DNA of 61,950 nt, the filler included, from Hausera hauseri (taxonomy: Eukaryota), in NCBI GenBank assembly GCA_046269625.1. It is 11 parts of 11 records of this genome, joined end to end, with 100 filler letters (N's around TTAATTAATTAA, not from the genome) between each part and the next. Parts side by side here need not be neighbours in the genome. Positions count along the whole stretch, not along the records: positions 21,212 to 28,561 come from JBJURY010020231.1; 10 more parts are not named here. The stretch is one strand, 5' to 3'. Positions 4,431-45,645 of the stretch are shown here, one piece after another. The stretch's first letter is position 1; each line of letters opens with the position of its first letter. The notes beneath the pieces were generated by a model. It was not told where the DNA came from, made no database searches, and worked only from the letters and a program-made list of their open reading frames with translations. Made by a program: the position numbers and the translations under genes.

Positions 4431-4499
4431 TACGTCCACCATCGAGACCATTTCTCCACCAATATCTTTACAAGACGCGCAGCAATCCAAAAATTCACC

Positions 4500-7620: not shown

Positions 7621-7639
7621 AAAACTTCCTCAATAGTTA

Positions 7640-9000: not shown

Positions 9001-9183
9001 GAATGGGAACTAAGGGAATTGGAAAACCCTGTAGATCCATATAAAAAAATAACCCGACAACTACAGATCAGGTTATTCTGTCATCAAACAAAGAATTGGT
9101 TTTGGTTTAAAGCCATACCTTGTTTTAAGATTAACCTTTATATTTTCTTTTTCAGACTGGTAAGTAACCGAATCGAAAAGAAC

Positions 9184-13564: not shown

Positions 13565-13583
13565 CTGACGGACAGACATACAA

Positions 13584-14819: not shown

Positions 14820-14863
14820 ATAAAATCCGCTTTGTCTCACCTTTTCTTCTTTGTCGTCGTACT

Positions 14864-15070
14864 ATGAAGTTGTTTATTAATATTAATATTATGCTTAATT
14901 CACATTTAGCTCCACCGAGCTCAGTCACTACAGAAAACTGCTCTTGGGCGTGAAATTTCGTGGCCTGTTTCAACTGGATAGTGTGCCACTTGATTTACGA
15001 CAAACCGGCGCCTTTATTGTCAATACACACACTTCATCGTTGCCGGGTGAACATAGGATTGTTGTGTATG
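14864..15070 (+). pseudogene. Adenain-type (C5) cysteine protease, 5' part, truncated by contig end
   Basis: FRGLF..D..AFIVNTHTSSLPGEH(R), against a consensus of NT..PGxHW. Confidence 0.82.
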
Positions 15071-15170: not shown

Positions 15171-16132
15171 CCGAGAGATTACAACTTTATCCCAGACAGA
15201 TGTGTATACAGCAAACATTAACTAGCGCCACCAATTCACTATCCCAATTAATTCTTACCGATCAACCACAGAAATTCGATACTATTGCCATCCATCTCAT
15301 TTATGGCAACTTGACAGTCAATGTCAATTTCGATGATCCTATTCTTGACATTAATCATGAACTGCTTAACAATTCTAGTGTAATTATCACAATTCCTCCT
15401 GCTGAATTATTATCCTTCACTATTTCTTCTTCAAACGATTGTCTATTTGCTGTAGAAATAACCCAACCGAAGCTCATATACACCTATAATGAGAGCTATG
15501 ATCAATTAAATTATATACCGAGACCACTACTACCAATAAACGAATATTCCTCGACACCAGAAGGATTATTTACATCCGACTTAGAATCTCTATCCGTTTT
15601 CGTAGCCTATACATACGTCACCACTCAACCCAGTCTGACAACCATTAACCAAACTATTATTGACATCACTATATTAGACTTCAAAGGCGAGATATTACTA
15701 CAACAGCAAATGTACCCCCGACATAAAGTCGTAGATTGGAGAGCACCTTTTACAGGAATAACTGATAATCTTACCCTAAATAAAATAGACAACGAAGATT
15801 TTCTACCCTACATACAAGATATTTTAAAATATAAATTCATAATAACGACACAACTCGACCTATTATTGTGTTCATTGAAACTGCCTAATACCCTTACTAA
15901 TGGTTTCTTCAATCTTAGTCACCACCCTATCGCTATCAACTTTTCAACAGACCCAATGCTTATAACTCGCCTGAGCGAGCAGTTATTACACACCACTACT
16001 ATTCCCACATATACTTCACCACTAATACAAGCTCACCTACTTAGACAATTGTATAATCTTTTGATGAATTCGTTATACATTGAAGATACTGACAATATGA
16101 ATCATAATATTATTGAGTTAAATCTCAATTAA
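15171..16132 (+). CDS. Retroelement cargo ORF with a degenerate DEDDh (REX4/ISG20-like) exonuclease domain
   Basis: IIDITILDFKGEILLQQQMYPRHKVVDWRAPFTGIT..IQDILKYKFII follows the REX4/ISG20 pattern (xSIVNxxGxxxYDxxxxPxxxVxDYRTxxSGI..ILKGxILV). The ExoI DxE is replaced by AYT. Possibly 5'-incomplete at the contig start. Confidence 0.55.
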
Positions 16133-16148
16133 TTCCATTTATATTTAG

Positions 16149-17422
16149 ATCCACCGGAATGCATGTTCTGCAGAGCTATTATCTCTGAAGTGTACAGATT
16201 AACACCCTGCCTACATATGGTTTGTTTATTTTGTATAGAACAAGTTCGAACACGAGCCCATCCTACACCATATTGCCCTGTGTGCACATATGAAGTCAAA
16301 TATTGTATTCACCATAACGTATACCCATCCGACGCTGATCAATCACTACTAGACGCCCAGACCCTTGATGTCATTGAACCTACGGATCATACTACCTATT
16401 ACTACACTTGGAATATATCCACCCCTTTTTCCATTCCAAACTTTCAATTGCACATGTGTTGCCTATGTCAAAAACCTAATAGAATATCCTATCAATTTAG
16501 CTGTTGTAATGCCGAATACTGTGCTCATTGCTATCAACTAGAATCTCACCATCGATATTTAATCTGTAGCATATGTAACTTTTGCCCCCAGTTCATTTAC
16601 GCATATTTCCACCATCCTAGAAGAGCTCTCCTTACCATTACTAACACTCCAATTCCCCAAATACTTCCGACAAGATACTTCCGGTTAGAACAACAGGCAT
16701 CAGTTAGAATAGAATTCCCAATTCATAAATTTGACCCCTCTATAATAACCAGACTACCACCGATTGTTCTTCAAACACCTTTACCTCACATTAATGTTAT
16801 GACTCTCTTACGACAACCATCTTCAATACCACATCCACGCTATCATCCAGAACAAATTACTAGACCATTACCTGAATTGCCAGTACCAGTACCTACAATA
16901 ATACCCACACCAGCTATTTCTTATAGCCCACCATTACCAATATCTTTACAAGAAGATTGGTTTCCTGTCTACAGCAAATGTCCAATAGACCTTATTTCTG
17001 ACCTAGCCCCTCCTGACTTATGGGCAACACTACAATCTCACTACTATGACCAATTTCCCACCTACGAATGTACTATATGCCTTACCGAAAGAATAACAGT
17101 AGTTCAATTTCAATGCAACCACAAATTATGTGCAACCTGTTTCAACAAACTTCGATCCCAATCTATCAAATCAATCGATCCAGAAGATGCTTTACAGATG
17201 ACCTTTCAAAACGGCATTTCTTGTCCATACTGCCGGCAACCATCAGTATACTACCATTTCTCCTACACCTATGACGACCGAACCCAAAGACTATGCCATT
17301 GGATGAACCCCGTAAACGATGCGACTTTGACAATTAAACCCAGAAACCTCAGTTTCGTCGATGCCAGCACTCAGAGTGATCCGGAGGACCGAATCTTTTT
17401 TCAAAAGGGGGAGAAATGTTGA
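16149..17422 (+). CDS. Triple RING-finger protein with Pro-rich linker (putative E3 ligase)
   Basis: CMFC..CLH..CLFC..CPVC; CCLC..CC..CAHC..CSIC; CTIC..CNH..CATC..CPYC. The first Cys (16160) lies upstream of the annotated ATG. Confidence 0.8.
17403..17422 (+). mobile_element. Polypurine tract and start of a 3' LTR (TGTTG at 17417)
   Basis: GAGGAC..TTTTTTC-AAAAGGGGGAGAAA-TGT, a typical Gypsy 3' end. The LTR's right end could not be located. Confidence 0.72.
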
Positions 17423-18095
17423 GACTCATTAGACTCATTAATTGATCATTAATTGATCTTTAATTTGATCTTGATCTTTAATTGACAATGAGTGACAATA
17501 AGAACGTTAAGACTGACAACAACATTTTAACCTTTTTCCGAAAGCCTTTTGACAATGTGTACTTGTACTTTTATGACTTCAATTCACAACTCTAGAATAC
17601 AAGTATTTTAAAATATGTAAAGCCTCCCTGATAGGCATTTTTATAAACTGTTGTATGTGAATTGTGTGTGACCCTTTTTTCTTTCTATGTCACAAAATCG
17701 ATTATGAAAATATAAATTCGTATTTAAAAATCGACCTTTAAATTAAAATTGAGGTTATCAGTACTTAGACACGAATCTAAAATTCGAAGTACATTGAATT
17801 AAAAAGGTATACATTGAATTAAACAATTAAAGTCCGCCGAAAAGTCCGCCGAATTGACGTCAATAAATGCGTTTGTAAATCAGATTGGCGAAATTAATGT
17901 TCAGTTTTACAAACAAATTAAAAATGATGTCATTGTTTAAATTAAAAATCCAATTATACATACGAATTAAAAAAAATCATAGTTCAAATTGAATTGACGT
18001 AGGCAACTACAAATAAATTTGAAAATTAAATTAGATAATTGACGCGCGTAGGCAACGACAAATTTGAAAATTAAATTAGATAATTGACGCGACGG
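17421..18095 (+). repeat. Short tandem duplications in the putative LTR U3
   Basis: AGACTCATT x2, ATTGATC repeats, TACATTGAATTAAA x2, AAAGTCCGCCGA x2, and a ~45-bp duplication (GTAGGCAAC..AAATTTGAAAATTAAATTAGATAATTGACGCG). TATAAATA near 18109. Confidence 0.7.
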
Positions 18096-21000
18096 CATAG
18101 TGTACAGGTATAAATAGAAGAACCACTTTGTACAAAAAAACTACAAACACACAAAAAATTTATTCAATATTCTGACGCGAAAAGTTCGAAACATTTAAAT
18201 GTTTGGTAAGTTTGTCGAACGACATATATGTACTGACAAATTACCTAGATTTTTAAACGAAGAAAATGAACAATAATAACGGAAACAATGCCTCCTCCGA
18301 TAATCATGATCAAGGAAGTGGTGAGCAAAAAAATTTGTTTTGTATTTGTTTTATTTCTCTTGTAACCTATTGTTGTATTTTTTGAATAAAATTTTTAAAT
18401 TATAAATTGTCAAATAAATATGGTGTGAAAACTGATATCCGTTGATGAGTGGAAGGAGTCAGAGAAACTATGCTCGAACGCGATAATTCGATGTTGGGGA
18501 CGGTGATGACCAACCTTATATATGTAAAATTGATTAAAGGTATCTACCCGAAGGTCATCTCGATGAGCGAAAGAATGTCGTTAAAATTGCGAATAGATCG
18601 AGGAAATTTCCACTCATACCCTCAGAATCGTTTTTCGCCGAATGAAGTTATAACTATACGAAGGTGACTTATTGTTGGTCGAAGTTCACCCTGACGTTCT
18701 GAAATAAATGGAGCCCCATCAGATTAACACCATCCTATTCACTAGGTGTTATATTGCTGAAGACATTAAAGGTTTAAAGGAAAGAGAAGAGTTGGTTAAA
18801 CCATTAGTGATCCAAGAGATGCATTTGGCTTACTGTGCGTGTTTCGATACGATTTTTCTGCGGATTACTATCCTATATGCGACGTTGACGAGCGAGAGTC
18901 TTGATTTCCATTCAAGTTCGGTCTTCCATTCAGTCGATGCTATTTTCAATTAGAAATGGGAATGACCAACTGGAGTGACGTCGAGGTAATCGAGATATAA
19001 GATAATGAAAACGAGAGATGTGAATTACAATTATCGAAATTAGAGGAAACGGGTGAAATTTGTTTAATCCCATTATTTTTAATAAAAGAGTTGAATAATT
19101 ATATTTCAATGACGATTAATTCCCGATATAGTTTCATACTATGTTTTCATTTGTTCAATTTAGAGTTAGATTCATATTGTATATTCTTGATTGTATCGAC
19201 GGATCCATGAATAAAAAGGATTTTGACATGAAACCATGAGTTGAGTTGAATAATTATATGACGATTAATTCTCGATGTAGTTTCATACTATATTTTCATT
19301 ACCCCTGGGAGAGCGGACTTCCTTTATTGATATAAATTAAAAGAAGACAAAGACATGCCCATTGATGAAGATTATTTATATTTTAATATCCAGTCTCCTA
19401 TGATTATTGCGACACGACAGAAGAGCCATCAAATCCCATGTGTAATAATAATTGGTAGAATATACAGAATCAAATTTGAGGAAATATGATAAGTAAACCA
19501 TTATTGTTAGAAAGTAAAAGATTAAAATTTGAAATGTAATGATTGAGATAATAACAATCTGATATTTCTGTATATATGCTTGTCCGTACTTTACTGAGTA
19601 TCAAGAATATGTTTTGCATCCTTGCCTCTAATTGATTTTGGGATTTTATGGTTCATAGTGGGATTCGTAAATAAACGAAATATAAATGGGCCTGTTTTTG
19701 TAGATACATTAAGTAATTAAATTAATATAATCCACATACAGTTATACAGTTCTTATAATGGAAAACCTTTTCGAAAAGGATATAACCCATTTCTGAATTA
19801 CAACTAAGTCAATTGAATGCTCCAGAATATGAATTTATTACAATCAATTTTTCCATAAATCATAAAAGGTTTTTGAAACCTCCTTCCACCATGTACTGCT
19901 TTATGCTCCAAATCAAATGACCATTAAACATCGTTTTCCCTCCATTCTATTCCTCACAGTCTAGAATGACTGAAGGCTTGAGGAGGAGCAGTAATGATGC
20001 AGAAAGCAACAAACAGTCCACTGAGCCAGCAGAATAACATGACTGCCATCCCATGGCCGAAGGATGAACAGGCACCTCCTCTCCTGGTGCACCATGCAGA
20101 CAGCAGGATATGGCACAGCTGCTAAAATAGGAGTTATTCTCTGTCCATTGCATTTATTTTATAGGTCGAGCACAATTCCACCGAGCCTGTTTCTCTTTCT
20201 GTATAATGAAGGGCTGTGATGGTGCTTTATCACTTGAACATCCTCATCCCCAACATTAGCTCAGATATAATGAGGGTTATTCAGAGGACGGGGGCCCTCT
20301 CTCCAGAATGATAAAAGACCCGAGAGTGCGCCGGTGACACGGCATCGGTCATTAGCCTGGCTCACTTTGCCCTTTCATGTATTTCTAAATAAGTGCTTTC
20401 CTGTGGGTTTAACAGACCACCTAATCTGCCTACTTACTCTGCGGGCGAGGAGTGGGAATCCAGAGGTGAATTTCAGATGGCTAAATGTGCTTATCTGTGC
20501 TGTGGCATGTTTAGCCTCTCAGGTGGAAAGTCTGCCACAGGCTTCCAACCCCAGCAGGTTTCACTACTGATATAAATTATGAAAGGATTAATGTATTTCT
20601 GTGACATACTATATGTAGCAGATGTGGAGCAGCAGCTCCCATAGATGTTACAGCTTCAAATCGTGTGAGCATAATTCGTGTGCCTACGTCCACACATTAT
20701 CTACTGGGTAGCGGCAGAGAAACGTGTCGGGTCACGAGGCTCGAGATAGTCTACAATTGAATGGTGGATCACTGCTAGGAGGCTAAGCATCGCAGATATT
20801 GCCTGCAGGACCACCTCCCAGATAACCTCCGGTGAGGCAGGAAAGCTTTCTGTCTCGCCCCCATCTGTCTTTTCCAGAACGACCAAAACAGCCATTTTGG
20901 AGGGTTGTCAACAAGATCTGACTCTCGATGATGTGAGGATCAAAGCTATGACAACACATTTTCAAAACATTGCAAAGGATGATCTCCAAACCAAATATAT

Positions 21001-22679
21001 GAGTACGTCTGAAATTGCAGGGAAAGGATAACACAAATTAAACCATCTGCTGGTGAAAGATATTTGTTACTATATATGAAAAATTAATTTCAGTAGAACT
21101 TCATAGTTGGTNNNNNNNNNNNNNNNNNNNNNNNNNNNNNNNNNNNNNNNNNNNNTTAATTAATTAANNNNNNNNNNNNNNNNNNNNNNNNNNNNNNNNN
21201 NNNNNNNNNNNAAAACCGAAATCTATTTTGTAATGCTAAGTATATATATAATTTAGGAGAACAAAATTAAAAACATACCATTTGTCGTACTATTCATTCA
21301 AATAACGCCATGCTATTTACACACCACTATTTATATCCGACCATCAAAATTAAAACAAAAAATTTTTTGGCGCGAAATTCAAATTTTACACCTACCTAAA
21401 ACCCGTGAAGTACTCGTGCTTGTGTGCGTTCACTTTGTGACTGTATATCCTATCTCCGCCCTATTAATCGTGCGTGTGTGTACCGTTTTTTCTACCCAAT
21501 GACTCATCCCGAACCACTTCTCTTCCTTCCTTCAATGTGGGTCTGTTGTTGTGTCCTCCTTTCTACCTACTCAAAAGCCGTTCAAAGAACATGCTACCGA
21601 TCTTTATTTTGGTGTGTAGAATGGGGGAATGACAAAGTTCTTCGAAATATTGATCAAGTCACCCTTTTTTCCGACAAGTTTCCTCTTAATAACCATCTTC
21701 TCAAATTCTTCATCTCTTTCAGGATATTTCGCAAAGTCGATATTATTAGGTTCACTCAATTTTCTCTTTCTGAAAGGCTTTTGGTACCACAAGCATGGGT
21801 GATTCATGGCACAACTTAATGCAAAATTCCTTATGCGAAACGAGAGATCTCCACCTAAGTAAACGGTATTACCAGTTTTCACAAGAGCTTCATAGGGTTT
21901 CTCGTCAACGTGATCTTTCAAAGCATTATAGGAGTCAGCACCTTGTCAACAGTGCAAAGGGAGAAAATTATAATACGATGAAGGCTTTGAATGGAAAATC
22001 AAGGCAGCCTAGAGACTACGCGTCCATATTTTTATCAAGTGACATCAACAATTTCCTTTCCAACTTACCATTCAAATGAGGTCGTAGAATTCGTTCTTCA
22101 ATGACTCGAGCAGAATAAACCAATACAAATCCATAAACAGTCATGTTTTCGTGTCGAATAAGCTTCTCAAAATTTCTCTTTGTTGCATCAAGAATACTCT
22201 TCGAGGTTATTGGAGAACCGAAAAAATTTTTTGCAAATAAGTTAACTTTTCCAATTCCCATATTAGTCAGTTTCATGACTCTTTTAAAGCCAAGCGGTTT
22301 TTCAGGTGAAGCAGGATTTGAATTGGAAGAGTTGCTTCTTCTGGCTTCATTCATGCTTCGGCATCTTGCAGCCTTGGCAATATGCGCCGTATTTCTTGAT
22401 TGTCTCTTCCATTGTTTTGAGCTCTTGATAGCCAAATATTTGTTAAATGCCCAGTGCAATCGAAATTTGTACTTTAAGAACTACATTGGGCAATATTTTG
22501 TGAAGCCCGGGTTGAGGCTTTTATCAAGTTTAAACTACCAATTGTCAATGGTCCTTTGTCTCTCAGCACGCAACAATACTTAAAGTTGTTTACTAGTACT
22601 TTCTTCAAATTAAGCGTGTTATGTTTTGCCTTTCGTCAACCCATCTAAAAGACATATATGATAATACATAAAAAACATA

Positions 22680-22957
22680 TAATGGTATTTGGCCGGTGTG
22701 ACAGTATCTGTTGCAGCGAGAACCGTTGATGCATTCTTTTTAACAATGCCTTTTACATAGAGTAGCCTATCGTTCAAATCGAGATATTCACTGTTTGATG
22801 CCATAATGTTAAATTGAATGTCTATGTTATTGTCGGTTGAAACCAAATCAACGGAGTAGATTTCTTTAAATGCTGCATTGTCAATAACAACTTGTGGCGC
22901 GCCTTTGTCAAATATACATAATTCAGATTTTGCCGATGAAAATTGTCTGTTTTTCAA
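22680..22957 (-). pseudogene. Major capsid protein 5' fragment
   Basis: Closely similar to the first ~87 aa of the MCP at 13584; homology stops after VTPAKY. Confidence 0.88.
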
Positions 22958-23316
22958 TCGAAAATCGTACGACTACGACGTTTGTTTATAGTTAAAAAGC
23001 TAGCTGATCTACCACGTTTTCGATTTCTCAAGCCACTGCCAGCGAATTGTTTTTTGACTGATTCAAAGACTTCCGGTGTACAGCTTTTTATTTCTGACGA
23101 GGCGTGATTCTTCAGTGATGGTAAAATCGATTTGTTTTCATACAGTTCATCCTGTGCTATTTTTGCTGCCACGGCTCCAATACGCTTCATTACCGGAACT
23201 GCTAAACGTGCTAATGTACGCAACCATCCATAACCATACTGTTTACTAACCAAATACGGCAGTTCATTGCCTTGCTGGGGTTTACTGTAAATGGAAACGA
23301 TTTCAGAATCAATCAT
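22954..23316 (-). CDS. QxGxG-motif basic protein (putative core / membrane-lytic precursor)
   Basis: QQGN, QYGYG followed by amphipathic WLRTLARLAVPVMKRIG; Arg-rich C-terminus ending RTIFD. Confidence 0.7.
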   Translation of the reverse strand: MIDSEIVSIYSKPQQGNELPYLVSKQYGYGWLRTLARLAVPVMKRIGAVAAKIAQDELYENKSILPSLKNHASSEIKSCTPEVFESVKKQFAGSGLRNRKRGRSASFLTINKRRSRTIFD

Positions 23317-23319
23317 GTT

Positions 23320-24368
23320 GTTGGATTCGATGCAAGTAAAGAAATACGGAAATCCAATAAGCTAGTCCGCGTCACATCGGATATTCACTTCAACATTGTT
23401 TATAGATGTAGATGCTACAGGTAGTCACGTTAGATTATCGAGCTTAACAGTGACTTTGTCGCCGACAGAATATTTTCTGCTTTCCGAATAAATTGCACGG
23501 AGTAACAGTACACGTACTCCACCAACCAAAATCGGTTCGGTGACGTTCACGTAAATGTACATTTGATTTAGTCCAGTTATCAGTTTGGGTTTAAGTGTTG
23601 CAACATGTGCCGCCGCCTTCTTCGCCCCAAACCTCTGTTTACAAAACCAAATACCATGGCCAAAGCTTTGTCCAATAAAATGTCGACAATATCCTTAGCC
23701 AGTTCAAATTTATTGTACCTATTTGCATCTGACTCAAAAACTTTAAATATTTCATTGTACTTTTGATTTAAAAAAAACTGTTGACAGAGATGTGCTACAG
23801 ATTCGCAATAGACATAGTCTCCAATGATACGTATGACGTTAACACCCTTTCTATTATATTGGTAAATCTCACGGTTGTCTGGTACTGTACGGGACTTAAT
23901 CTTGGAGCAACTGCATATTCACTTTTGATATCTTTACCTTTGTACTCTGTATTTTTGAACCCAAATTTGTGCGCCATATAACAGGACTCAAAGGTGACAG
24001 TAAATTCAAAATTCGCCATAAAATGTGAGTTTTTACACTAAAATAAAAACACCGATCTTGCCGTTGGAACCGTAATTTTTACTCGTCGTGCAAATGGCCG
24101 ATTCTCCGACTGTTATTTTATTGCCAGTAAGTGTCAAAGGACAAGAATGTGTTTTAAATTCAGTAACAGTCTTGTTGTACGTTATTTTCATACTACCTTT
24201 CAATGTCATAGGTGCGTAGGTAAAGTTAAATTCCGTCAGTGTAACCTCCAATTTTCCAAATAAATCCAAAGAATTGTTCCAATCTACAACGTATTCACTG
24301 GCGGAATTGTTCGGATGAGTCGTCGAACAACTGTTGTTCGGCAACATCATGTAAATACTCATATTCAC
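23320..24368 (-). pseudogene. Minor capsid protein paralog 2
   Basis: YMMLPNNS..NSASEY..LEVTLTEF; homologous to 12140-13202. Confidence 0.83.
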
Positions 24369-24399
24369 AATGATGTCAATGATGATTATGCAGTTTGTT

Positions 24400-25466
24400 T
24401 TTTATCGACGATGACGTAGAAAATGTAACGTTAAATGTGTCGTTGACCCAAAAAGAAATTTAATGGGTTCCCAAATTCAACAGTCATATACATGGAAATA
24501 CTGTGCACAATATTATGAGACAATAATAAGTACATAGATCTGAGCATATTAACGCGAAAATTTTCACCGATGTTTTGTATGTGTCAGAATCCAGTTTCAT
24601 AGAAGTCAGTAGTTGTTTACGTTCTCCACCAACGAGTACGAATTCGGTTAAGTCCGTTAAAATGTTGATTCTATGAAATGCTCCATAGAGTTACGCTTTG
24701 TATTTGGTAACAATAGATCGTCCAACAATGTTTTGATAGAATTCGCGTTTTGAAAAACCCAGATTCCAAGCCAATAATTCATCAAAGGCAAAATATGTAA
24801 CATTGGCACGTAGAATAATAGAAATATAACCATCTGTGTTTATTTCACGTGTTTACGGCTAATGTAGCCGTTTTCTTGACGTACTCACACAATTCCATTT
24901 CCGTTTCCATTAATAAATCATGTTGTATAATATATGAGCGGAAGACGGATTCTGACCTAGTCCACTTTACTATAATATCGGATTCCGCAATGGATGAAAG
25001 GTCCAATTTTTCACCAATTATAACATGGCCACCTAGCCGTAAACGTTTTGAGTGTACATTGACTGATTGAAAACCCCATGCCTGAGCACCAGCTATAGAA
25101 TTAAACTGCATTTCAATGGGTTTCCATGCACTAGTTTTATACGGTAGTTTGAAAAATAAGCACAAACCGAGAAATGTTGTCGCGAATAATTGCGAAGAGT
25201 ATATCGGTTATTGTGTCGGATTGTCGCAAGCGACTTGAAATAGGTTACGTTTCTTGTCGGGTAAAGTAAATACCACTGTTTTGATGTATTATCATTGGTC
25301 AAAATGTAATTGTGAATTCTGTCAAAGCCACTTACCAGGCTCCCTGACGTAAATCGACCGGTTGGTCCAAGTGTATGGTAAACTGTTTAGCGGTATTGTC
25401 ATTGTCGTCGTGTTGTGATAATGATCTGTTACTATCAAGTACCAAGTAAATGCCGCTGCTGCTCAT
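24400..25466 (-). pseudogene. Minor capsid protein paralog 1
   Basis: YLVLDSNRS..NTAKQFTIHLDQPVDLRQGAW; C-terminal VLVGGERKQLL. 3' boundary approximate. Confidence 0.75.
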
Positions 25467-26492
25467 TGAATCTGTGATGCAAAAATCCGACTCGGTGCAG
25501 TGTATCCGTGTCACTTGACGAGATATTGTTTATTCGAACCTTTGCCACGTGAAGGTAGAATTTCCTTAATACGATATATATCGGGTTTCTAGGACAGTAC
25601 TTGCAGTTCATGTTCGTAGAATTTACTGTGTATTTCCTCACCGTTTTTATTTTCTAAAACGTACATGACAGATGTTTGTTTTGTGTTGATTGTCGAAATG
25701 TGGAAAACCTCATCGCGCCAGTTCTGATTGAAATTCTTAATGAATGGCGTCGTACTTATTTCGATATACGTACGTAAGCACCAATTTTATATTTTGAGCG
25801 TTTAATTGAATCTCGTTGTGTTTGGTTTTGATAAAGCCACACATCCAAATCATCTATTTCAACCGGCGCATTCTGTTTATTCCACGGTGTGTCAAATGAT
25901 TGTATGCATTAATAATATCCGGTAGTACACCTACCAAGCGTTTGTTGCTTTGCTTCGTAAAGAATTTGTTTAGGCGACCGCGCAATGTTCGATTAAATCG
26001 TTCAACGAGTGCAGCATTGTATTGGGAAGACACCGAGTAGTGGTTAACTCCGAACCTTTTCAAGACCGCTGCAACGTAAACATTGTAGAATTCCTTACCT
26101 AAATCCGTTTGTAAATGCTTCGGCTGTTGTTGTTGTTGTATCAGTGTCTGAACAGCGTCAGCGATCTCTTTACCGGATTTAGATTTCACGGCAATTGCAC
26201 GTGCAAAACGACTAAACATATCAACGCATGTCAGCACGTACCGGCACCCATCGTTCATACTGGTGTACGGAATTATTTCCATCAGATCCATTTGCCATAC
26301 ATTATTTACACCGGCTGCACGGTATGCACGAGTTGGAAACTGCCTTCTTATCGGTTTGTTTAGGCTGTATGCTAACTGTTTCCCGAGCCAACGTTGGGTC
26401 TGTTGCCGAGTCCGTTTGACAGTCTTTGCCACTTTGTCGACGCCAGTATAGCCGAAGGGATGATGCAGGTCGAACCACACATCGTCCATCAT
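25463..26492 (-). pseudogene. Polinton DDE (rve) integrase with chromo-like C-terminus
   Basis: WLGKQLAYSLNKP, WQMDL, CVDMFSRF, LQTDLGKEF, VERFNRTL, YN..HRGI; frameshifted tail with KFYEHELQ..YLVK*HGY. Confidence 0.92.
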
Positions 26493-26621
26493 TGCCGTCG
26501 ATGGTGTCGGTTTTGCTCGCATTATAACAATTAGAACGAAACGTAAATGAAAGATTAGGTGAACTGGGACAGAAAGATGAAAACCATTCACCCATATCGC
26601 CGAATCATCATATACTTATCG

Positions 26622-26960
26622 TCACTGTTTATACTGTGCTGTTGAAGAACCAGTGAGTCCACCCAGTAATGATGTGGCAATCGGTAGAATTACACCAGGG
26701 AACGCGCCATCTTGCTGGTACATAACCACTCGTTTCAGTCGTTTACTACGGGTGTTGGCAAGGCAAATGAGTCGTTTTCGATACTTTAGTAAATTCCGCT
26801 TTCCACTACCAATGTCAACGTGACCCACAAAAATATTGTATAAAATCTCCATCAAATCGTCTACTACAAACTGTGAAAATGATCGCAGCATGTTTTGCTT
26901 ATGTCTCGTAGGTTTCTTGAGCAATGCAATAAAGTACGGCTGACCACGTTTATATCGCAT
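26622..26960 (-). CDS. Conserved small Polinton protein with a C-terminal amphipathic peptide after Q-x-x-G-(G/A)
   Basis: LMEILYNI..GHV..LLKYRKRL..L..YQQDGAFPGVILPIATSLLGGL; open in copies B and C. Confidence 0.7.
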   Translation of the reverse strand: MRYKRGQPYFIALLKKPTRHKQNMLRSFSQFVVDDLMEILYNIFVGHVDIGSGKRNLLKYRKRLICLANTRSKRLKRVVMYQQDGAFPGVILPIATSLLGGLTGSSTAQYKQ

Positions 26961-26974
26961 TTTTGGACGTATTT

Positions 26975-27176
26975 ATGTTGATGAGATGTAGTTGTTTGTA
27001 ACCGTTGCCACTGTGACAGCAATTTGCGTCTAGCTGCTGCTGTTGTTGTTCGACGAAACACAGAATTGATTAATCGCTTAACTGTAGCAGTGATTCTTTT
27101 TGATACACGTTTTTTGCCACCGGACACCCGCTTGGTAGGTTTACGTTTAACAATTGTTTTTCGGAAATTCTTCATT
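26975..27176 (-). CDS. Small Lys/Arg-rich ORF (putative DNA-condensing protein)
   Basis: MKNFRKTIVKRKPTKRVSGGKKRVSKR..; conserved in copy C (50704-50877). 3' end uncertain. Confidence 0.45.
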
Positions 27177-27188
27177 TTTTTATCATAA

Positions 27189-27831
27189 TCATGTCGTCGA
27201 TTTTCGAATTTGTTTATAGACACATACACCACCTTTCTGATTGAAAATGTCTGTTCGTACACGCATGTCATCGGGACACTGTTGCGTAAAGTCGATGAAC
27301 AAGTATCCGTGTGGTTCGGTCGTAGCATCATGATATGCATCTATCAAGTAGGCTCGATTGTGAGGAAATGCTTGTCGTGCAACATAATCAATGATAGTCT
27401 GATCACGGGGATTTTTGAACAACACCAAATAGTGTACGTTTAGATTTCTTGTTTGATGCTGTCCGCCCTGATGGAACATGTTTTGCGTAACGAAAATAAC
27501 AGTCACACCACGATGTCGTGCAATCTTTGTGAACAGATTACTGAAGTCGGTTTGTTTTGTTGCCTCTTGAAATCAATCGTAAATGACAATAACGTCACCG
27601 TTTTGTAACGTTTCAAACCAATTCTCATCGAACCCATTTTAATTTACAAAATTCCCGATGTATCAAACCGGACTCACCATCATCACCAACACCCTGATGC
27701 CAATATATGTGATTGTACCGCAGTGAATGGAACATGTCACAGTAGTTCTGCAATAGTTTACACACAAAGTGCGTTTTGCCACTTCCACCGGGGTTCACAA
27801 CCTGGAAAATTGAATCATTCTGCAACTTCAT
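27189..27831 (-). pseudogene. A32/FtsK-like packaging ATPase
   Basis: Walker A PGGSGKT, damaged Walker B, RHRGVTVIFVTQN, YLVLFKNPRD, HGYLFIDF. Confidence 0.92.
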
Positions 27832-27866
27832 CTAAATAATAACACAACCTTTCCTCACATGATTTG

Positions 27867-27896
27867 TTTATAATCGTGTTACACACATATAAATAG
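27867..27896. promoter_or_regulatory. Back-to-back TATA boxes in the 90-bp spacer between the ATPase and the TBP-like gene
   Basis: TATAAA on the - strand (27867-27872) and TATAAATAG on the + strand (27888-27896), each ~25-35 bp upstream of the respective ATG. Confidence 0.45.
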
Positions 27897-27921
27897 CTAT
27901 AGTTTAAACACTGTTTCCCTA

Positions 27922-28427
27922 ATGTTAGCTAATATTAACTATCGTGGACATGTTACCGAGTGTGACATTAACACACCACCTTTTAATCAATAGAAGTCGA
28001 GGCAGTATGTCCTCAAGTGTCCGCCGGATTTTACATGCATCACATTTCAATCGGGAAATTGTCGTATTATGGGTTGTCGCAAATTAATCACAGATGACAG
28101 TAACAATATACTACTGGAATTCGGAATTGTCATTGACTAAATCCAATCAATAACGGTAATGACTCAGTTAGACTGTCCACCAATTAATCTGTACAAATTA
28201 ACAATGGCCACTGAAAGTACTTATGAACCCGACCTGTTTTCTACAGTGAGATTGACATTGTTTTGCCACTTTGTGCCAATGTGTTTAGCAGTGGAAAAAT
28301 TGTTGTACTCGGTAGTCGGACAGTGGACTGTGAACCGATTATTAATCAAATTAAAAACCACATAAATGTTTTAGTGAATGAAAATAATGTACACTGCACA
28401 AAAACAACAAACTGCAAATACCATTAA
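27922..28427 (+). pseudogene. Divergent TATA-binding protein (TBP)-like gene
   Basis: Manual translation through two stops and one frameshift (~28263): MLANINYRG..CITFQSGNCRIMG..IQSITV..PPINLYKL..TYEPDLFSTVRL..PLCANVFSSGKIVVLG. This matches both TBP core repeats (IFxSGKMVCTG; IQN..PIRLEGL..YEPELFPGL..IFVSGKVVLTG). Confidence 0.8.
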
Positions 28428-28661
28428 CATGCTCATTCAGACATTACTACCATGGAAGACGACAATAAAACGATTTTACTCAATGATGATGGTGGTTGTG
28501 AGAATGATGAAAGTTCAGATTGGTCGTGGTTATTTGGCTACAAAAAGGACAATTTTAATGTNNNNNNNNNNNNNNNNNNNNNNNNNNNNNNNNNNNNNNN
28601 NNNNNTTAATTAATTAANNNNNNNNNNNNNNNNNNNNNNNNNNNNNNNNNNNNNNNNNNNN

Positions 28662-30181: not shown

Positions 30182-31030
30182 ATGGAAAATCACAACGTGG
30201 AACAGAAGATCCAGCCAAATGCTGATTTTACCTTACCAATGAAGAGGTTCTCATGGAAAGAAGATATACAAGATTTTTAATGGAATATGAAGTATATTCC
30301 AAAAGTTTAAGCTGGGACAACAAGCAGAGAGTGTAAAGATTACCTCTTCACTTAAAAGGGACGACTCTCATGATTTATTTTCAAATGCCCGATAAAGATA
30401 AGAAGGACTGGAAAGGAATTAAAGGAAAACTGCCTAAAAAGTGTTTAATAGATCCCTTTGGAAAGGGGAGAATTCAAGAGTTTATAAGAAAGAGGCAACG
30501 TAAAGACGAAATAGTCCAAGACTTTGTCTGTGCATTGGAAAAACTTGCATCAAGAGCATATCCAGACGTAACCACAAGAAATAATGCACTACTAGCTCAA
30601 TTTCAATACGGATATGAAGAAAGATTAAGGACGATAATATCACAAACAGACCCGCTTACTTTCTATGAAGCAATAAGAAAGGCGCAAAAGGCCGAACGAG
30701 ATGCGGAACTGTATAGATGGAACAAGCCTAGAAATAATAATAACGGTTATGACAGAAGAATAAATAATAGCACTCAAAAGTATCAACGTTATGAAAGAAA
30801 CAGAAGTCTGTCACAAACGTCAGTCACAGAAGCTGAATCAGATATATAAAAGAAAGTGAGATTTAATTTACGAAACGATGGAGAAAAGATGAATTATAAG
30901 AAGAAATCCAAAAAGGATGGAAGGGGCATTACCTAATATAGATTCCGAAGGAAGATTAAAATGTTTCAATTGTAATAAATGTGGCCATACAGCGAAATCA
31001 TGTAGACTACGCAGAGGAGATTTATGAAAA
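30182..31030 (+). pseudogene. Ty3/Gypsy gag (capsid + CCHC knuckle)
   Basis: W..K..LPLHLKG; RKQRKDEIVQDF..LEKLASRAYP..AQFQYG; CFNCNKCGHTAKSC at ~30962-31003. Confidence 0.85.
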
Positions 31031-31334
31031 CGAAGTAATAAAAATAAACAAAAAAAGATCACACATCAGCTACATCAGATGAATCATCGGACAGAAAATA
31101 TGAAACGGAGAATAGTAAACAAGAAGTTAAGAAAAAAGATAAAAAGAAAGAAAGTGTCAATTATATAAACGATACACTACCTCAGCACATGAAAAAGCAA
31201 TTAGAAATAGAACTAAAAGAGTAGAAAAGACAACAGCAAAAATTGAAAGAAAATAATATCTATGTTATAGGGGAACAACCAGAAAAAAGAGCATCTCATA
31301 AAGAAAGGAAGAAAGGTAATAAAAAATCTTTGAC

Positions 31335-32679
31335 GTGGAGGTTGGATCAAGAGAAACATCAACAGAGAGGGAAGAGGTAATGAAAGAAAAGAAAAGAGGA
31401 AGAAGGAAGAGTAACCTTAGTACACCTTCATTGGATGAAGACGAACCTCAAGTTACACCAATATTCGATGAAGCTATACTAGACAAAGTAATAAGGGATC
31501 CAAGCGTAGATTTAGATGAGGAAGAGGATATTATTCAGGCAGTATTGGCTGTAGATCCTGGTAATATAATCAATATGGATAAAGCAACTACCACGATATT
31601 AAAGATAATTACTAATAAAGTAATGTTGAAAACGTTAAACGAAATCTTACCTCAATTGGTATTATCAGCCCAAGGTGCCAGTCCTGTGAGGAAAATAGCC
31701 AGGACAGTATTGGCCAAAGCCGCAGAAGATGGGAAAGGCAGGAATGAAGCTATACGAGTAACGGTAAGAGAAGGAAATCAGGATAAGAGTGTCATCAGGA
31801 TGAATGAAATAGATGATGTACAAATTTTAAGAGAAAAGATTGAGGAGTTGGAGCCTTTTTATCAAGGGATTCCTTATGGATTAAATTATTATGGAAGAAC
31901 CCTATATAATTACGATAAGTTATTGAGAATTGGATGTAGAAGTGAAAACTACAATCCAATATCAATAACCAAAATACATCCGGAGGCAAGAGTATAGTCA
32001 ACAGTAGAGAATATCCTAAGGGAAATGGAACTGCAGGAAGTAGATAACCCCATGGGTGATATACAAGATTTTACAGTTCAGACGGAAGCCAAGAGAAGAG
32101 GTAGGCCGAGAGGAACAAAAATAAGTGACATTCGCAATAGGAAAGATAGGAATGAAGAAATAGTAAGACGTTTGTTACTAGCAGGAACAAATGGCACTCC
32201 CGAATCGGTGGATACTGATCCATTACTAAGAACGTTATTGCTAGGCTACATACGTCATTTGCCTCATTTGATATGCATGCAATAATCCCAGACGAACTGT
32301 TCACAACGGTACTTAATAGCATGTTACAAATAAGTCGACAATTCTATGAGAATTTAGATGAAGAACGGATAAATGAACTACATGAGCTGGATATTTTGGA
32401 GAAGATGTTCGCAACAAAAATCATACGAGACAAAGTTCAGACGGCTATATCTTACCTTCTGTATAAAATAATAGTAATTATTCATCAAACTCAAAATCTA
32501 GAAGAGATTGAACGAAATATAAAAACAGCCGTAAAGATTTTGAAGGATACGCTAGGAAGCTGGGCTCAATGTAGAGGTGAATGGTTGAACAGCCTGATGA
32601 CTAATATAATAAGGTCAGGAGAACGAGAAAGATTAGTAGATACACCTACCGCAATGCAACCAAACGTCTCTAGACTAGG
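31335..32679 (+). pseudogene. Non-pol ORF after gag with a ubiquitin-like domain, an AT-hook and a helical region
   Basis: IRVTVREG..DDVQILREKIEE..LNYYGRTL..KLLRIG resembles the ubiquitin fold; KRRGRPRGTK AT-hook. ORFs 31335 and 32025 are in the same frame, separated by one TAG. Confidence 0.55.
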
Positions 32680-33305: not shown

Positions 33306-33797
33306 TCAAAATAAAACTGAATTCGTAAAGAAAAAAGATCCAAAACCAACCCTCTTTTTGATATCGATCTTAAAATGTGACTGAAGAAGATCGACGAACG
33401 GAGCTTTACAACTGGAATAGAGCATCCGTTCCTTGACAGAAGCCGAATAGCCGGGCATATTATATGTGAAAACTATCGGTTTGTGACTGTCGTTTTCAAA
33501 TTGATGTCGAAATCTGATTAAAATATATCGGGGTTTATCTGGATCTACTCTTGACTGAACCTCTTCGCAGGTGATAGTTTCAAGACTACATTCGGGCCTA
33601 ATTCGTTCTTTATCTATTTCTATGTTCATTTCAAGGAAATCAATATCCTCCCGACTAAAATTCTCCAACTCTTTAATCAAGTCATCCGTCGGCGGAAGTC
33701 CTGTGCATTTCAACGTACAGTGTCCGTCATCGAGAGCGGTTTGTTTCTCGGCCATTTTAATTTCCATTAATTCCAATTTCAAAGAATCCAAAACCAT
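33306..33797 (-). pseudogene. TWF: Twinfilin fragment (linker + C-terminal ADF-H domain)
   Basis: PRY..FRH..VFTYNMPGYSASVKERMLYSSCKAP; no N-terminal ADF-H domain seen. Confidence 0.8.
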
Positions 33798-34879
33798 TAT
33801 ATGAGTTCAATCTTTGTTGATTTGTTGGACAAAAACATGATTCTGTGACTTTGAATACACATAATATGTGGAACAAATATAGGTTTAAATTTCATTTGCT
33901 TTGTTACTACTTGATTTTTACGAACGCATTCATTTTAATTTTTGAATTGTGTATAAACACTGTTGAAAAGCCAAGCTTAGACTTATTTATATTTATTAAT
34001 TTCGGAATTCGACAGAAAACATGGAACTAATCAGTCACTGGAATCGGTGCAGAGCTTCCAAAATGTAATCTATATAAATATAGTGCGCTTTAGATTTTTG
34101 CCGTACATCTCGTAGATTTCATGAATCGACAAACTTTTTTATTACTTATGCCGAATTCCCACATTGAGAAAGTACATAAAAGTCAATTCAACTGAATCTA
34201 CATTAATAAATTTCCTTTTCGATAGAACGACAATTAAACACTACCCTTCCACAAAAGGTAACAATAAAACTGTTCACAATACTCCGTATAAATAAAACGT
34301 AAACAAAAGTCGAGAGAAAAAAAAATTATTTTTGAATTAAGAATCTAATCAAAACTGCCGTGAATGCATGTGAAAGAATAATCGCCAATCATTTATCCAT
34401 CAATCATCACGTCACACAAACAAGAACAACGCAGACACACACAAACACATAGAGAAAGAAGAATTGTGTTATTTACATGAGTCTCATCATCATCAATATC
34501 TTCGTCCTCATAGGGTTTGTTGTTGATTGGTGCGTTTCATTTTTGGTTTTAACTGCATTTTCGTGATGATTTTCATGATGATGACGACGATATTATCATC
34601 ATCACATCATCTACATCCAACAATTGTTCATTTTGGCCAATTTTCTGTATTTTACCAACATTCTCATCAATTTTATCGCTGTCCAATCCTCATTCGATAA
34701 ATCTCTGTCAAACCGTTGAACATCCGACTAAATCTCCCTCGTCAATTGCTCCTTGACCTTCAAATTCTCCATTTCCAACAGTCGTTCTTAGTAATAAATT
34801 TGTGACGAATACTCATTCCACACAGAATGATACGAAATTGTAGACAATATATCTGTCTCTGAAAAACAAAACGAGAAAA

Positions 34880-37144: not shown

Positions 37145-38103
37145 ATGTCTTCCACATTAAAAAAGTGGGTCGGACTTCAACAGCTTTTAAACACTCCCGG
37201 CCCGTTCCAAAGACGGGATTTTAAGCCTCAAGCTGATGTATTTTATTTTATTATGATTTTCTAAATAATTTCATTTAGCTTTTGGAATTAATTCGTGCAA
37301 ATGTTAGCATTTTGGTCATCGGAGCGGGAGGATTGGGTTGTGAATTACTCAAGAATCTAGTAAAATGTTCCTGAATTTCGCTGTTTACGTTTTTCACAGG
37401 CTCTACTGGGATTTAAAAACATCGAGGTCATTGATGCCGATATCGTCGACCTATCTAACCTCAACCGACAATTTTTATTTCGTATTCAAGACATTGGAAA
37501 ACCGAAAGCTGTCGTTGCTGCCAATTTCATTATGTCTCGCATTCCAGACTGTAAAGTGATTCCACATTTTTGTAAAATCCAGCAATACGATTCCCATTTC
37601 TATAAGAAATTTCACGTTATTGTTTGTGGACTGGATTCGGTTGTAGCGAGAAGGTGGATCAATGGAATGCTGGTTTGGTTGATTGAGTTGTCGATTATAA
37701 AATATTGGTTAGGCTAGTTTAGTGTACTATCCATTATGTACACTGGCAAGTACTCCTCGATTGCCCGAGCATTGTATCGAATACGTCCGAGTAATGTTGT
37801 GGCACAAGGAATGGCCATTTGGGCCGAGTGACAATCCCGATCATCTGAATTGGGTTTATCAACGGGCTGAAGAACGGGCAAATCAATTTTCCATCACCGA
37901 TTTGACATATCGACTGACTGAAGGCGTGATCAAGCATATTATTCCGGCAGTGGCGTCGACAAATGCCGTCATTGCAGCGGTTTGTGCAACGGAAGTGAGT
38001 TCGATCCAATGCGTTGACTCGTACTGTGGATTTGTGACGTTTCTTTACGACTACAATGATGCTGATGGAGTTTATACGTTTACTTTTACGGCTGAAAGAA
38101 AGG
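37145..38103 (+). pseudogene. UBA3: NEDD8-activating enzyme catalytic subunit UBA3, internally deleted copy
   Basis: [67 protein letters not shown]. 40-nt introns at 37360-37399 and 37673-37712. The conserved DGGTEGFKG segment is missing. Confidence 0.88.
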
Positions 38104-38919
38104 TAACGTTTTTCGTATTTCAATTCGTTAATTTAACAAGTTCGTCTGCATTGATCTATTAGTTTTGTAACTAATTGTGTTAAATGGAACTGCGAATAGC
38201 TCATCATTCGGTTGGTTTTAGGAAATATTAGAATTTCGGAAATGGTGCACAAAATTCCCATTTCGTTATATGGTATTCTGTGCACAGTTTCCGAAATTCG
38301 GATATTTAATGTGGGAATCTACAGGGATACGTATTTCTTATTGATTTTTAATATTTTCTGTATCGATNNNNNNNNNNNNNNNNNNNNNNNNNNNNNNNNN
38401 NNNNNNNNNNNTTAATTAATTAANNNNNNNNNNNNNNNNNNNNNNNNNNNNNNNNNNNNNNNNNNNNTTTTTGGTAATTGTGATACATCTCATAAATTGG
38501 TTATCTTTTAATTGTTTTTTTCTTATAACGCTGTTATCGTTAATAATACATTGTATTTTTACATTAAGAATTGTTCTCCCTCTAACTAAAATAACTAAAT
38601 AAGTAAATTCTTAAGTAAATTGGAAGAAACAGCAGTCCGTATAATTATAAGTAATGTGCCTTTAAGTAAACCGTAGAAAGTAATATAAAATCAGCCGTAA
38701 CGGCTATTATCCCCTTACACATTACCTATAAGTTAAGGCTAGGTAAGATCTTATTGCCTGTCTCGCCCTACTCGACGCGCTGAAAGTAATCATTGAAGTA
38801 TATTTGTTCTCCCCATTAATTCAACACACGTTCAATTAATAAGTCTCTCCCAACTCGAATTAGTGAGGAATAAACAAAACGGAAATTCCTTTAACGTGTT
38901 TTAAAACAATTTTTCTCAA

Positions 38920-41900
38920 AAAGAATCATACACCAATGGAATTACTTGATTTGCAGAAATTGCCAATTAAGGCACTGAGGAATGAAGAATTCGAGCATTC
39001 TTACAACAACCGTAAGAAGAATTTCAATGTAATTCAAACACAATATTTTGAAGCATTGTATAACTCCGATGAAAATGTGTTCCTCGGTGCACCAACAGAA
39101 AGTGGGAAAACGGAATGTCCAGAATTTGCCGTTATGCTTTTGTTTTCTGACAAACAAGAGGGTCGCTGTGTTTATATATTGGCAATTGAAAACACGACTC
39201 AAATATGATATGATAAGTGGCAGAAAACCTTGGGCAGTTTGAACAAAATGTTGTTAAACAAACTTGAAATACGAACATGGATATACGGATGATTGCCAAA
39301 ACAAATATTGTTGTGACAAGACGAAAAATTGCATGTATTGTCTTGAAGTTGGATGAGCAGAAAGGCCGTTCAAAATATAAGTTTGTTTATTGTCGATGAT
39401 TTGCACTTGCTCGAGAGTCATTATAATGGAAATTGTGTACTCAACAACTAGAAATATGACTTTCCAACTTGAAAATCCAATACGAATAATCAGTCTGTTT
39501 TATGCACTCAGCAACTCCAGAGTTGTTGGTGAATTGTTGGATTGCAGTAGTTCGGCAACTTATAATTTCCATCCAGATGTCCGCCACCGTCTTATTAACA
39601 TCGAATTTACGACTTTAAACATCGTTCATACCGCTAGTAGGCTGAATACTATTGTTGTAGAATTGTACATATTATTTGGATGAAATAAGCAGTGTAGAAA
39701 ATTAGAAAACTGTATATAATTAAAAAAGAGTATTCAGAACATTTTGCCGTATTTTTAACATTTTAGATGAATTTTCCGAATGTCTATGAATTTACATAAG
39801 AAATTAATTAATAAATGGTGCTTAATACATAGACTATATCTGTAAATTGAATAATCGAATAATCGAACACAATTAACGAAAAACCAGATAGTCACGTAGT
39901 CAGTCGACTATATAAGCGGAGAGCGAAACGAGACACGAGTAATTAGTTGTTTTGCAGTTGTTAGCAGTTGGGTAGTTTGAAGCTGAATCAGATATCAGTT
40001 TTTGTTGAATCAATCAGTGAGTGTTGAATAAGTTGAAATGATTGGACAAAACAGAATTCAGTTGAGAAATTATTCGATTGAGAAAATATTCGATAACCGG
40101 AAATGAACATTATTCAGAATCGATTTGATTCATGCAGTGAAATACGATTGTATTCGTTGTATTAATAAATTTGTTTTATCAAAATTTTCGATAGTTTCCC
40201 ACTGCCTCAAAGGTAGTTTGACGACATTAAGGTTTAAACTTGATACGTAAATTATATAGATAAGTCTAGAAGTTATTTAATTAATTTGCACAGGACCGTA
40301 AGAGAGTACCCACATTACTACTTGAAATCTTCATATAAAGCACAATCCATCTGGACGAGAACGTTTAGATCTTACCTGTTAAAATAGTAATTTAATTTCA
40401 AGTGTAATTATTGTTTTATAGTAGGAGTTGTATAAGGGCCACCCCAATATATAACACTATGGTGAGACCAGTTTATTAAGTTGTAGTTAGAAATCAGATG
40501 AACAGTCCCATTATAATTTTTACACCAGCAATGAAGCAACAGAAGTAAGTGTTCAATCTAATGGGATTTGCGCTGTCTGATAAGCGGAATTTCAGTGGAG
40601 CAACTGAAGCACAACTGAATGAATATATGGCCAGAATTACCAATGAAATTTTAATTGAAACTTTAGCCTTCGGCATCGGTTTCATTCACGAAGCCCTATC
40701 TCATAATGAACGCAATCAAATTCTGGTGTTGTTTTCATATTATTTGATTCAAATACTGATGGTTTGTCATAGTCTGTGTTTGTCAATTCCATCAAATGCC
40801 CATTTGGTCATTGTTATGGATACTTAAGTTTACAATGGCAATGATTGTATGTACAACGACTATGCGGCTGTTGATATAATCCAGATGATTGGTCGTGTGA
40901 ATAACGTGCAATATGAAGATTCCAGGGCAATAATAATGTGTCAGAATAAGAAGGATTTATTGATAAATTCCTTTCGGAACCGCTACCGCTTGAGTCTCAC
41001 TTAGATAATCATCTGCATGATCATTTTGATGCTGAGGTAGTTACGAAAACTATTGAGAACAAGCAAGGTTCAGAAGACTATTTGACATGGACGTTCCTTT
41101 ACTATCGAATGACGAATAATCCGAAGTATTATCAATTGAGAGGCGTCGGCCATTGTTATTTGAGTGATTATTTTAGTGAACTTGTTGAGAACACACTTAA
41201 CGATCTTGAAAAGTCAAAGTGCTTAACAATCAAGAATGACATTGATGTAACTTCAATCAATCTGGGTATGATCGCTGCATTTTATTACGTCCATTATGCT
41301 ACAATCGAAATGTTCAGAAAATCACTGCTGGCCAATTCAAAAGTGAAAGGGTTATTAGAACTTATTTGCAATGACGATGAATTTGAAGAACTTCCAATTC
41401 GGCATGGTGAAGATGTTTTATCAAAAATCCGACCGTTCCTTCGTATACCATCGTTGAACAAGAGAAGTTTAGCAAATCTAAAGACCAAGGCCCATATATT
41501 ATTTCATTCCCATTTTCTTCGTATTCTAATTAAAGCAGCTGAACTTAGAAAAGATGTCAATCAAATATTGGTGAAATGTGGCAGACTCATTCAGATATGT
41601 ATTGATGTACTATCGAGTAACAGATGGTTGAGTACGGCTCTAGCAGCAATGGAATTAGCTCAGGCACAATGGCATCGTCGTTCGCTTTTTCATCAAATTC
41701 CTTATTTCTATAACTAAGAAATTTTGCAGAGATGTGAAAATGCCAATTTTAAAAGCGTATTCGACTTTACGGAACTTGACGAGGAGAAGAAATTAGAAAT
41801 TCTCAGTCACCCGAGAATAAGGTGCGTGATGTGGTTGATATCCAATGCTATCCGAATACCGAATTGACGTTCAATGCCACCAAACAGATGCAAACTAGTC

Positions 41901-45603: not shown

Positions 45604-45645
45604 AGTACGACGAAGAAGACGAAAAGGTTAGACAGCGGATTTTAT

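Follow-up and report, generated by a model that had tools for sequence, protein, structure and literature searches.

A Polinton lineage carries its own short TBP-like gene, a candidate late-promoter factor

Introduction

The best functional analogy for the gene described here is the vTBP of beta- and gammaherpesviruses, in which a viral TBP is tied to a variant TATA box. KSHV ORF24 reads TATTWAA at late genes and works alongside five other viral factors, as described in PMC12529657. According to the same account, the DNA face of ORF24 is altered at the V122, T124, V161 and L205 positions, which are also changed in the short TBP of Polintons/adintoviruses, here called mini-TBP. However, ORF24 comprises 752 aa with extra domains, carries four Phe and has no TFIIB glutamates (PMC12529657), whereas mini-TBP has only ~150 aa and kept the TFIIB stirrup. 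Among the word-index matches, the mini-TBP family (~145-160 aa) is without the Pol II-binding and C-terminal domains of ORF24. Judged by this analogy, mini-TBP would work like the herpesvirus vTBPs but is not one of them, and it is a TBP-fold protein rather than a canonical TBP.

Similarities also exist to the TBPs of large dsDNA viruses, which have lost the eukaryotic N-lobe signature and may in this way evade Mot1/BTAF1 (PMC7221094). In contrast to mini-TBP, whose stirrup is conserved to 98-100%, these proteins are described with ~40% stirrup conservation and are mostly paired with a viral TFIIB (PMC7221094). No match to TFIIB was obtained among 31 representative ORFs of the TBP loci, which are partial elements. 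In BFVD, the best fold match of P0003, an intact mini-TBP homologue, had E=7e-8.

Cellular TBP (PF00352; eukaryotic TBP/TRF, archaeal TBP) shares with the modelled mini-TBP the two-repeat saddle fold (Z 13.2), the equivalents of N69, F116, F190, P191 and F207 and both TFIIB-binding Glu; yeast TBP position numbers follow Table 1 of PMC12529657. Unlike cellular TBP, mini-TBP has a core that is ~25 aa shorter, nearly all of it missing from N-lobe H1 and H2, and it possesses no aligned Phe at F99, no basic H2, no introns and no N-terminal extension.

The TBP-bearing loci resemble Polintons, Mavericks and adintoviruses (PMC8502044; PMC8097293) in having PolB, rve integrase, ATPase, adenain-like protease, PLA2-like and MAEL-like genes. 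In PMC8502044 the label 'TBP' appears in the legend of Fig. 5 for MELD viruses, which are discussed under non-animal datasets, and in the preprint it is likewise confined to legends. In the text of that paper we found no TBP analysis, promoter box or mechanism, and the text of its Suppl. Fig. S2, the animal adintovirus maps, carries no TBP label; in PMC8097293, on the vertebrate Maverick, the word 'TATA' does not occur in the text. An earlier note on this DNA had singled out the Polinton TBP as its best candidate for an undescribed system. This stands in so far as our search of the literature turned up, in text, no paper that analyses such a TBP or a YATAAAC box, although figures and supplements may still name a TBP-bearing element, but the label itself had already been used in the legend of PMC8502044 for a related non-animal element.

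Results

A decayed TBP-like gene beside a Polinton packaging ATPase

The window, which is the whole analysed stretch of 61,950 nucleotides from Hausera hauseri, consists of short contigs strung together with N linkers, and the TBP gene lies on contig 21212-28561. Six-frame translation placed FQSGNCRIMG and YEPDLF in one plus-strand frame and NVFSSGKIVVLG in another. Stops were located at 27991-27993 and 28138-28140 and a frame change near 28266-28293. With stops read as X, the first piece (P0001) matched Pfam TBP with E=2.4e-4 and 21.3 bits and the second (P0002) with E=2.4e-3 and 18.1 bits, each alone under the cut-off of 22.9 bits. A search with the first piece led to 1/1 candidates, P0003, an intact protein of 160 aa from a cluster of three which is 70% identical and scores 59 bits against Pfam TBP, above this cut-off. 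Residues 1-156 of P0003 align to the window (67% and 61% identity, E=2e-47), and the alignment begins at ATG 27922 and crosses two stops and one frame change. Both TBP motifs, the two stops and the frameshift reported in the earlier note were thus confirmed, whereas the extent of the gene had to be corrected: by homology it starts at ATG 27922 instead of 27867 and encodes ~160 instead of ~165 aa. Its distance of 90 bp to the ATPase ATG (27831-27829, minus strand) was correct, and no intron is needed to read the gene, as had been stated. The window copy retains 10/12 invariant and 16/20 nearly invariant family positions. As read here it is broken and would not yield a full-length protein. Its decay was said to be about that of the viral genes, and indeed two stops and one frameshift compare with one of each in the ATPase and two of each in the integrase; the putative capsid gene, of 412 residues, breaks off near residue 100. 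The features of the contig are as follows.

27922..28427, plus strand: decayed mini-TBP gene of ~160 codons, two stops and one frameshift; HMM matches in three pieces
27888..27895, plus strand: host-type TATA box TATAAATA, read from the sequence, 34 bp upstream of the TBP ATG; putative promoter element
27866..27872, minus strand: YATAAAC box 41 bp upstream of the ATPase ATG and 15 bp from the TATA box of the TBP gene, back to back
27189..27831, minus strand: decayed packaging ATPase gene with Walker A GSGKT, one stop and one frameshift
27212..27218, minus strand: YATAAAC box 43 bp upstream of the basic ORF
26864..27175, minus strand: Lys/Arg-rich ORF of 103 codons without Pfam match
26622..26963, minus strand: conserved ORF of ~100 aa after the ATPase (PZ/c4), PM-like by position
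26627..26633, minus strand: YATAAAC box upstream of the integrase
25469..26549, minus strand: decayed rve integrase gene (Pfam rve E=8e-14), start approximate
23344..25448, minus strand: putative minor capsid gene in two tandem decayed copies, named by gene order
23398..23404, minus strand: YATAAAC box upstream of the PW-like ORF
22957..23313, minus strand: PW-like ORF, by position
22984..22990, minus strand: YATAAAC box upstream of the putative major capsid gene
22646..22942, minus strand: 5' quarter of the putative major capsid gene, where this element copy terminates

The PM-like name of the ORF at 26622..26963 is based on the gene order in PMC8097293. On this contig six of seven YATAAAC boxes lie on the coding strand of the late module; five of these are upstream boxes, of the ATPase, basic ORF, integrase, PW-like ORF and capsid gene, and another falls within the PM-like ORF. 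Within the 90-bp spacer between the TBP gene and the ATPase, TATAAATA faces the TBP gene and TATAAAC, 15 bp away, faces the ATPase. Complexes on these back-to-back boxes (27866-27895) might be mutually exclusive and exert negative feedback on the TBP gene, which is a speculation on a rare layout.

Read coverage in four runs was similar for the TBP, ATPase and integrase bins, and the flank 21702-22681 was barely covered. In run X1 the summed depth amounted to 2.3-3.2 x 10^5 in the TBP, ATPase and integrase bins versus 14-50 in the flank, where depth is not to be equated with copy number. Read depth as high as over the element was also seen for an acidic ORF (MEDDNKTILL...) at 28453-28561 on the plus strand, which starts 25 bp past the stop of TBP and runs off the contig.

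Two more copies of the late module, 80-87% identical, are located at 11090-15068 (plus strand) and 45391-51329 (minus strand). Both are without TBP, yet their match ends at 27630-27637 inside the ATPase. Since they begin at about the same ATPase point, they suggest a shared deletion derivative. Both contain pieces of an adenain-like protease, and from the copy at 11090-15068 the greater part of the integrase is missing as well. A tandem duplication of the putative minor capsid gene is seen at 23344-25448, in the copy at 45391-51329 and at 5616-7684 of the metagenome locus L024. Decayed PolB pieces are present on a separate contig (53061-57060, minus strand), with no YATAAAC site in 4 kb.

Other parts of the window contain further coding pieces. 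A RING-finger ORF without introns (16133-17422) comes after another ORF, in which an exonuclease-like stretch was read by eye and which has no Pfam match; both lie in 15171-21111 and may be part of another mobile element. Host-type gene pieces comprise a twinfilin-like fragment (33306-33806), which matches chiton and insects at 33-40% and so places the host among the invertebrates, a ThiF piece (37364-38162) that we take to be UBA3-like, and a decayed-looking DEAD-box helicase (38867-42157), presumably BRR2-like. An open ORF of 1364 codons (57317-61411, plus strand) presumably resembles a BEL/Pao retrotransposon gag-pol, and further decayed pieces at 1-10381 and 30337-32679 are, we assume, Ty3/gypsy-like.

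A family of short TBPs in Polinton elements

In a search with P0003, 240 of the 251 candidates had E<=1e-3, and the best 120 of these 240 relatives were mostly 145-160 aa long and all contained PF00352. Alignment A1 comprises 113 of the best 120 after exclusion of 7 unusually short or long rows. The full-library search gave 670 matches at E<=1e-3, cellular TBPs among them. For the genomic context, we used the best 80 of 173 confirmed metagenome loci from A1, many of which share an id prefix and are non-independent. A core Polinton gene was found in 36 of the 80 TBP loci, and in 18/21 when only loci of at least 4 kb were counted; 35 more of the 80 carry an accessory gene that is linked elsewhere to core genes. 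Protein-primed PolB is present in L013, L024, L063, L064, L066 and L067 (in L064 with DNA_pol_B_2 at E=3e-23), and Peptidase_C5, the adenain-like protease, in L059 with 23.9 bits against a cut-off of 21.3. The ATPase shows Walker A and a conserved gene order but has no Pfam match, and the putative capsid genes, likewise with no Pfam match, are named by size and gene order. No terminal pair of inverted repeats was found in 6/6 regions examined, all of them partial contigs. The TBP gene is part of the Polinton element.

Among the 26 ATPase-bearing loci, 23 have TBP ahead of the ATPase in the same orientation, 2 have it head-to-head (at 385 and 1685 bp) and 1 has it downstream of the capsid-protease block; TBP follows the protease in seven loci in all. 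The head-to-head arrangement claimed in the earlier note is therefore real in the window but is not conserved, and as a family trait it was rejected. Because 23 of 26 loci are co-directional, the tight layout of the window is a local one.

A quick tree placed 43/43 short TBPs on one side of a long branch (SH-aLRT 100%) versus 14 full-length TBPs, an outgroup whose rows include no identified animal TBP, TRF1 or TRF2; L001, one full-length TBP from the TBP scan, served as outgroup only. The window copy nests among rows with Polinton context. Median dN/dS of TBP was 0.24, with values below 0.5 in 101/106 pairs, which are non-independent. For the ATPase the median was 0.41 (13 pairs), while integrase and capsid offered 0 and 1 usable pairs. 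By these values the TBP gene is under purifying selection. Predicted fold, genomic context, tree and selection together support the proposal of a divergent TBP encoded by this Polinton lineage itself.

Two ORFs accompany TBP repeatedly. An ORF of ~165 aa (L030 3360-3857 and 24 other loci) often flanks TBP and has the box in 18/23; it gave an Atlas lead (0.87) to a Maelstrom-like domain, with Arthropoda as the commonest taxon among the nearest clusters. A leucine-rich-repeat ORF with a signal-peptide-like start is located two genes past TBP in L034 (1918-3327) and four further loci, with the box in 5/5. The ATPase scan returned five distant matches (L082-L086), which were left out, and IMG/VR scans with capsid queries gave no match. 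L087-L091 are Polinton contigs within bacterial genome bins and probably represent eukaryotic carry-over.

Predicted anatomy of the mini-TBP

The AF2 model of P0003 reached a pLDDT of 95. Its top Foldseek matches were all TBPs (E=8e-9), and in VIA its residues 1-148 superimposed on human TBP 164-337 with Z 13.2 and rmsd 2.6 over 145 aligned residues, the next unrelated fold reaching 6.3. The TBP fold suspected in the earlier note is thus borne out at the level of the model.

Between anchors the core measures 122 residues versus 147 in plant-type TBP; ~10 are missing around N-lobe H1, ~13 around H2 and ~1 in the C-lobe. N-lobe H2 is absent in the clade of the window, where the gap in the profile alignment spans H2. 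The distant clade has a 7-residue H1 and a 12-residue H2, the latter net acidic in 15/18 loci versus 8 basic residues in the plant-type region. According to PMC7221094, TFIIB contacts two C-lobe Glu, whereas TFIIA, Mot1/BTAF1, Brf1/2 and TAF1 contact a basic N-lobe patch, largely on H2, in which three named positions fall. The stirrup Glu are retained in 98% and 100% of the 113 aligned proteins (41/47 and 47/47 in the distant clade).

On the DNA face, three of four intercalating Phe are invariant in 113/113. Alignment mapping found no Phe at the F99 position, as none is conserved before the N-lobe Pro, and V71, V122, T124, N159, V161 and L205 correspond to nearly invariant N, R, M, S, T and N, several of these substitutions being 98-100% invariant. 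The largest changes occur in the N-terminal repeat. On this mapping, the DNA face of mini-TBP is more polar than that of cellular TBP. The apparent loss of F99 together with changed N159, V122 and T124 could weaken or abolish DNA bending.

A strand-specific box upstream of most element genes

We surveyed 131 de-duplicated upstream regions from 11 gene classes. In a de novo k-mer count ATAAAC ranked first, occurring in 113/131 regions versus 11 expected. Within 120 bp upstream, YATAAAC was found in 108/131 regions in sense and in 0/131 in antisense orientation. It precedes the ATPase in 23/24, the putative major capsid gene in 9/10, the integrase in 11/14 and the zinc-finger ORF in 3/8 regions. 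For PolB the count was 1/3, with only 3 usable regions. Later counts give 110/128, the zinc-finger class having been swapped for the leucine-rich-repeat class after the counts had been seen. Both TBP clades carry the box (56/65 and 54/63). Box and ATG are 7-113 nt apart, often 30-45 nt; the wide range arises in part because starts were set at the first Met. Across the entire window YATAAAC is not enriched (29 versus 29.6 expected). The label 'late' is a loose one because integrase, MAEL-like and PLA2-like genes carry the box too.

At TBP genes YATAAAC was detected in 2/64 upstream regions. TATAWAD occurs there in 30/64 (shuffle mean 10.6, maximum 20) and the initiator-like TCAYWWT, a pattern picked after viewing the sequences, in 36/64 (shuffle mean 3.2); the latter lies 30-32 nt from the TATA start in 11/21 pairs. 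No such enrichment was seen at the boxed genes. TATAAA is followed by C at 80/97 late sites versus 2/25 TBP-gene sites. The degenerate host TATA consensus YWTAWADN given in PMC1935006 excludes C at position 7.

Control loci were chosen by ATPase or integrase, not by TBP. L104 and L106-L110, in which integrase alone was recognised, were excluded. Besides L087, which has both TBP and boxes, the selection yielded 17 Polinton-like loci without TBP match. In these 17 the box occurred at 2/132 ORFs of at least 100 aa, versus 83/150 in 20 hand-picked TBP-positive loci with core genes; TBP-negative loci were enriched in TATAAA(T) and TCAGT instead. The control loci are partial, and a TBP gene might therefore sit beyond their ends; GC content is high in three of them (51-56%), and several are near-copies. 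In the integrase tree, TBP-positive elements form one clade (1 change, SH-aLRT 92), and in the weakly supported ATPase tree TBP presence needs 2 changes. As the TBP-positive elements form one clade, the association of box and TBP counts as one evolutionary event and not as repeated evidence. Box and TBP may merely be co-inherited.

Discussion

The short TBP of these Polintons/adintoviruses likely acts as the element's own late-promoter factor in a one-gene early-to-late switch, a reading to which we assign a probability of about 0.65 on the basis of sequence comparison. One TATA-like box is shared by most packaging and putative capsid genes, and so mini-TBP likely reads it. The shared box lends indirect support to the suggestion in the earlier note that such a TBP may direct the late module. 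The N-terminal repeat is the part of cellular TBP that sits over the 3' half of a TATA box, and the C of YATAAAC falls in this half. According to the proposed switch, host machinery would transcribe the TBP gene early from an ordinary TATA and initiator promoter. Mini-TBP would then use its retooled, more polar DNA face to bind YATAAAC(A) in front of the genes for ATPase, integrase and putative capsid proteins, and its conserved YEPE stirrup would recruit host TFIIB and Pol II. The lost or acidified N-lobe H2 would allow escape from TFIIA, TAF1, Mot1/BTAF1 and Brf1.

It is unlikely, in our view, that a host TBP or TRF reads the box while mini-TBP is a decoy, sequestering TFIIB or sitting on host promoters and so dampening host transcription. 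Conservation of the stirrup with loss of one Phe would fit a decoy, and TATAAAC is one base off the consensus. PDB 1qn3 is, by its title, a complex of wild-type TBP on a C(-25) TATA variant, and host TBP can therefore bind a C-variant site, which speaks against the switch. However, the nearly invariant DNA-face substitutions suggest a selected specificity, 35/115 C-ending sites also start with C and are thereby two steps off consensus, and in elements that lack TBP the place of the box is taken by TATAAA(T) and TCAGT.

Less probable again is that the box is read by another element protein, such as the product of the zinc-finger ORF or of some unassigned accessory ORF, and that TBP has a function of its own or assists this reader. 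Since TBP and box go back to one clade, any clade-specific gene would fit equally, and a C2H2 ORF exists in 8 loci. The C2H2 cluster was, however, seen in the distant clade alone whereas the box occurs in both, and besides TBP the MAEL-like cluster is the sole accessory one that spans both clades. The TATA-like, strand-specific character of the box and its frequent position 30-45 nt from the ATG argue against such a reader as well.

We give little credence to a role of the TBP fold in non-transcriptional DNA bending during packaging or replication, with the box as a packaging or poly(A)-type signal, even though TBP often adjoins the packaging ATPase and the box is similar to AATAAA. The first base is A in only 4/115 C-ending sites and 36/110 boxes sit within upstream coding sequence, and the poly(A)-signal reading was rejected on these grounds. 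Besides, the box precedes the ATPase even in head-to-head layouts (window, L026, L033), and the TFIIB stirrup is retained.

A retro-pseudogene of a host TBP or TRF that came to lie beside the element by chance is largely refuted, for although the other two element copies of the window are without TBP and the tree is without animal TBP or TRF2, the window copy nests among homologues with Polinton context, core genes are present in 36/80 loci, and TBP is covered by reads like ATPase and integrase whereas the flank barely is.

Returning to mini-TBP as the late-promoter factor, a dedicated promoter factor with a matching box would open early and late phases of Polintons to direct test, and it speaks for a virion phase that is programmed. 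Viral TBPs elsewhere act with several viral partners, as described for herpesviruses (PMC12529657), or usually with a viral TFIIB, as described for large DNA viruses (PMC7221094). If the proposed role is true, a small TBP that keeps the host TFIIB contact without the regulatory helix would be a natural experiment on the minimal TBP. Mini-TBP and YATAAAC are a candidate orthogonal promoter-factor pair. Somewhat better than even, judging from the sequences, are the chances that a lineage of animal Polintons runs a true viral early-to-late cascade by one stripped TBP of 150 residues which reads YATAAAC, depends on the TFIIB and Pol II of the host and does not respond to TFIIA, TAF1 or Mot1, and which would thus constitute a minimal orthogonal promoter system.
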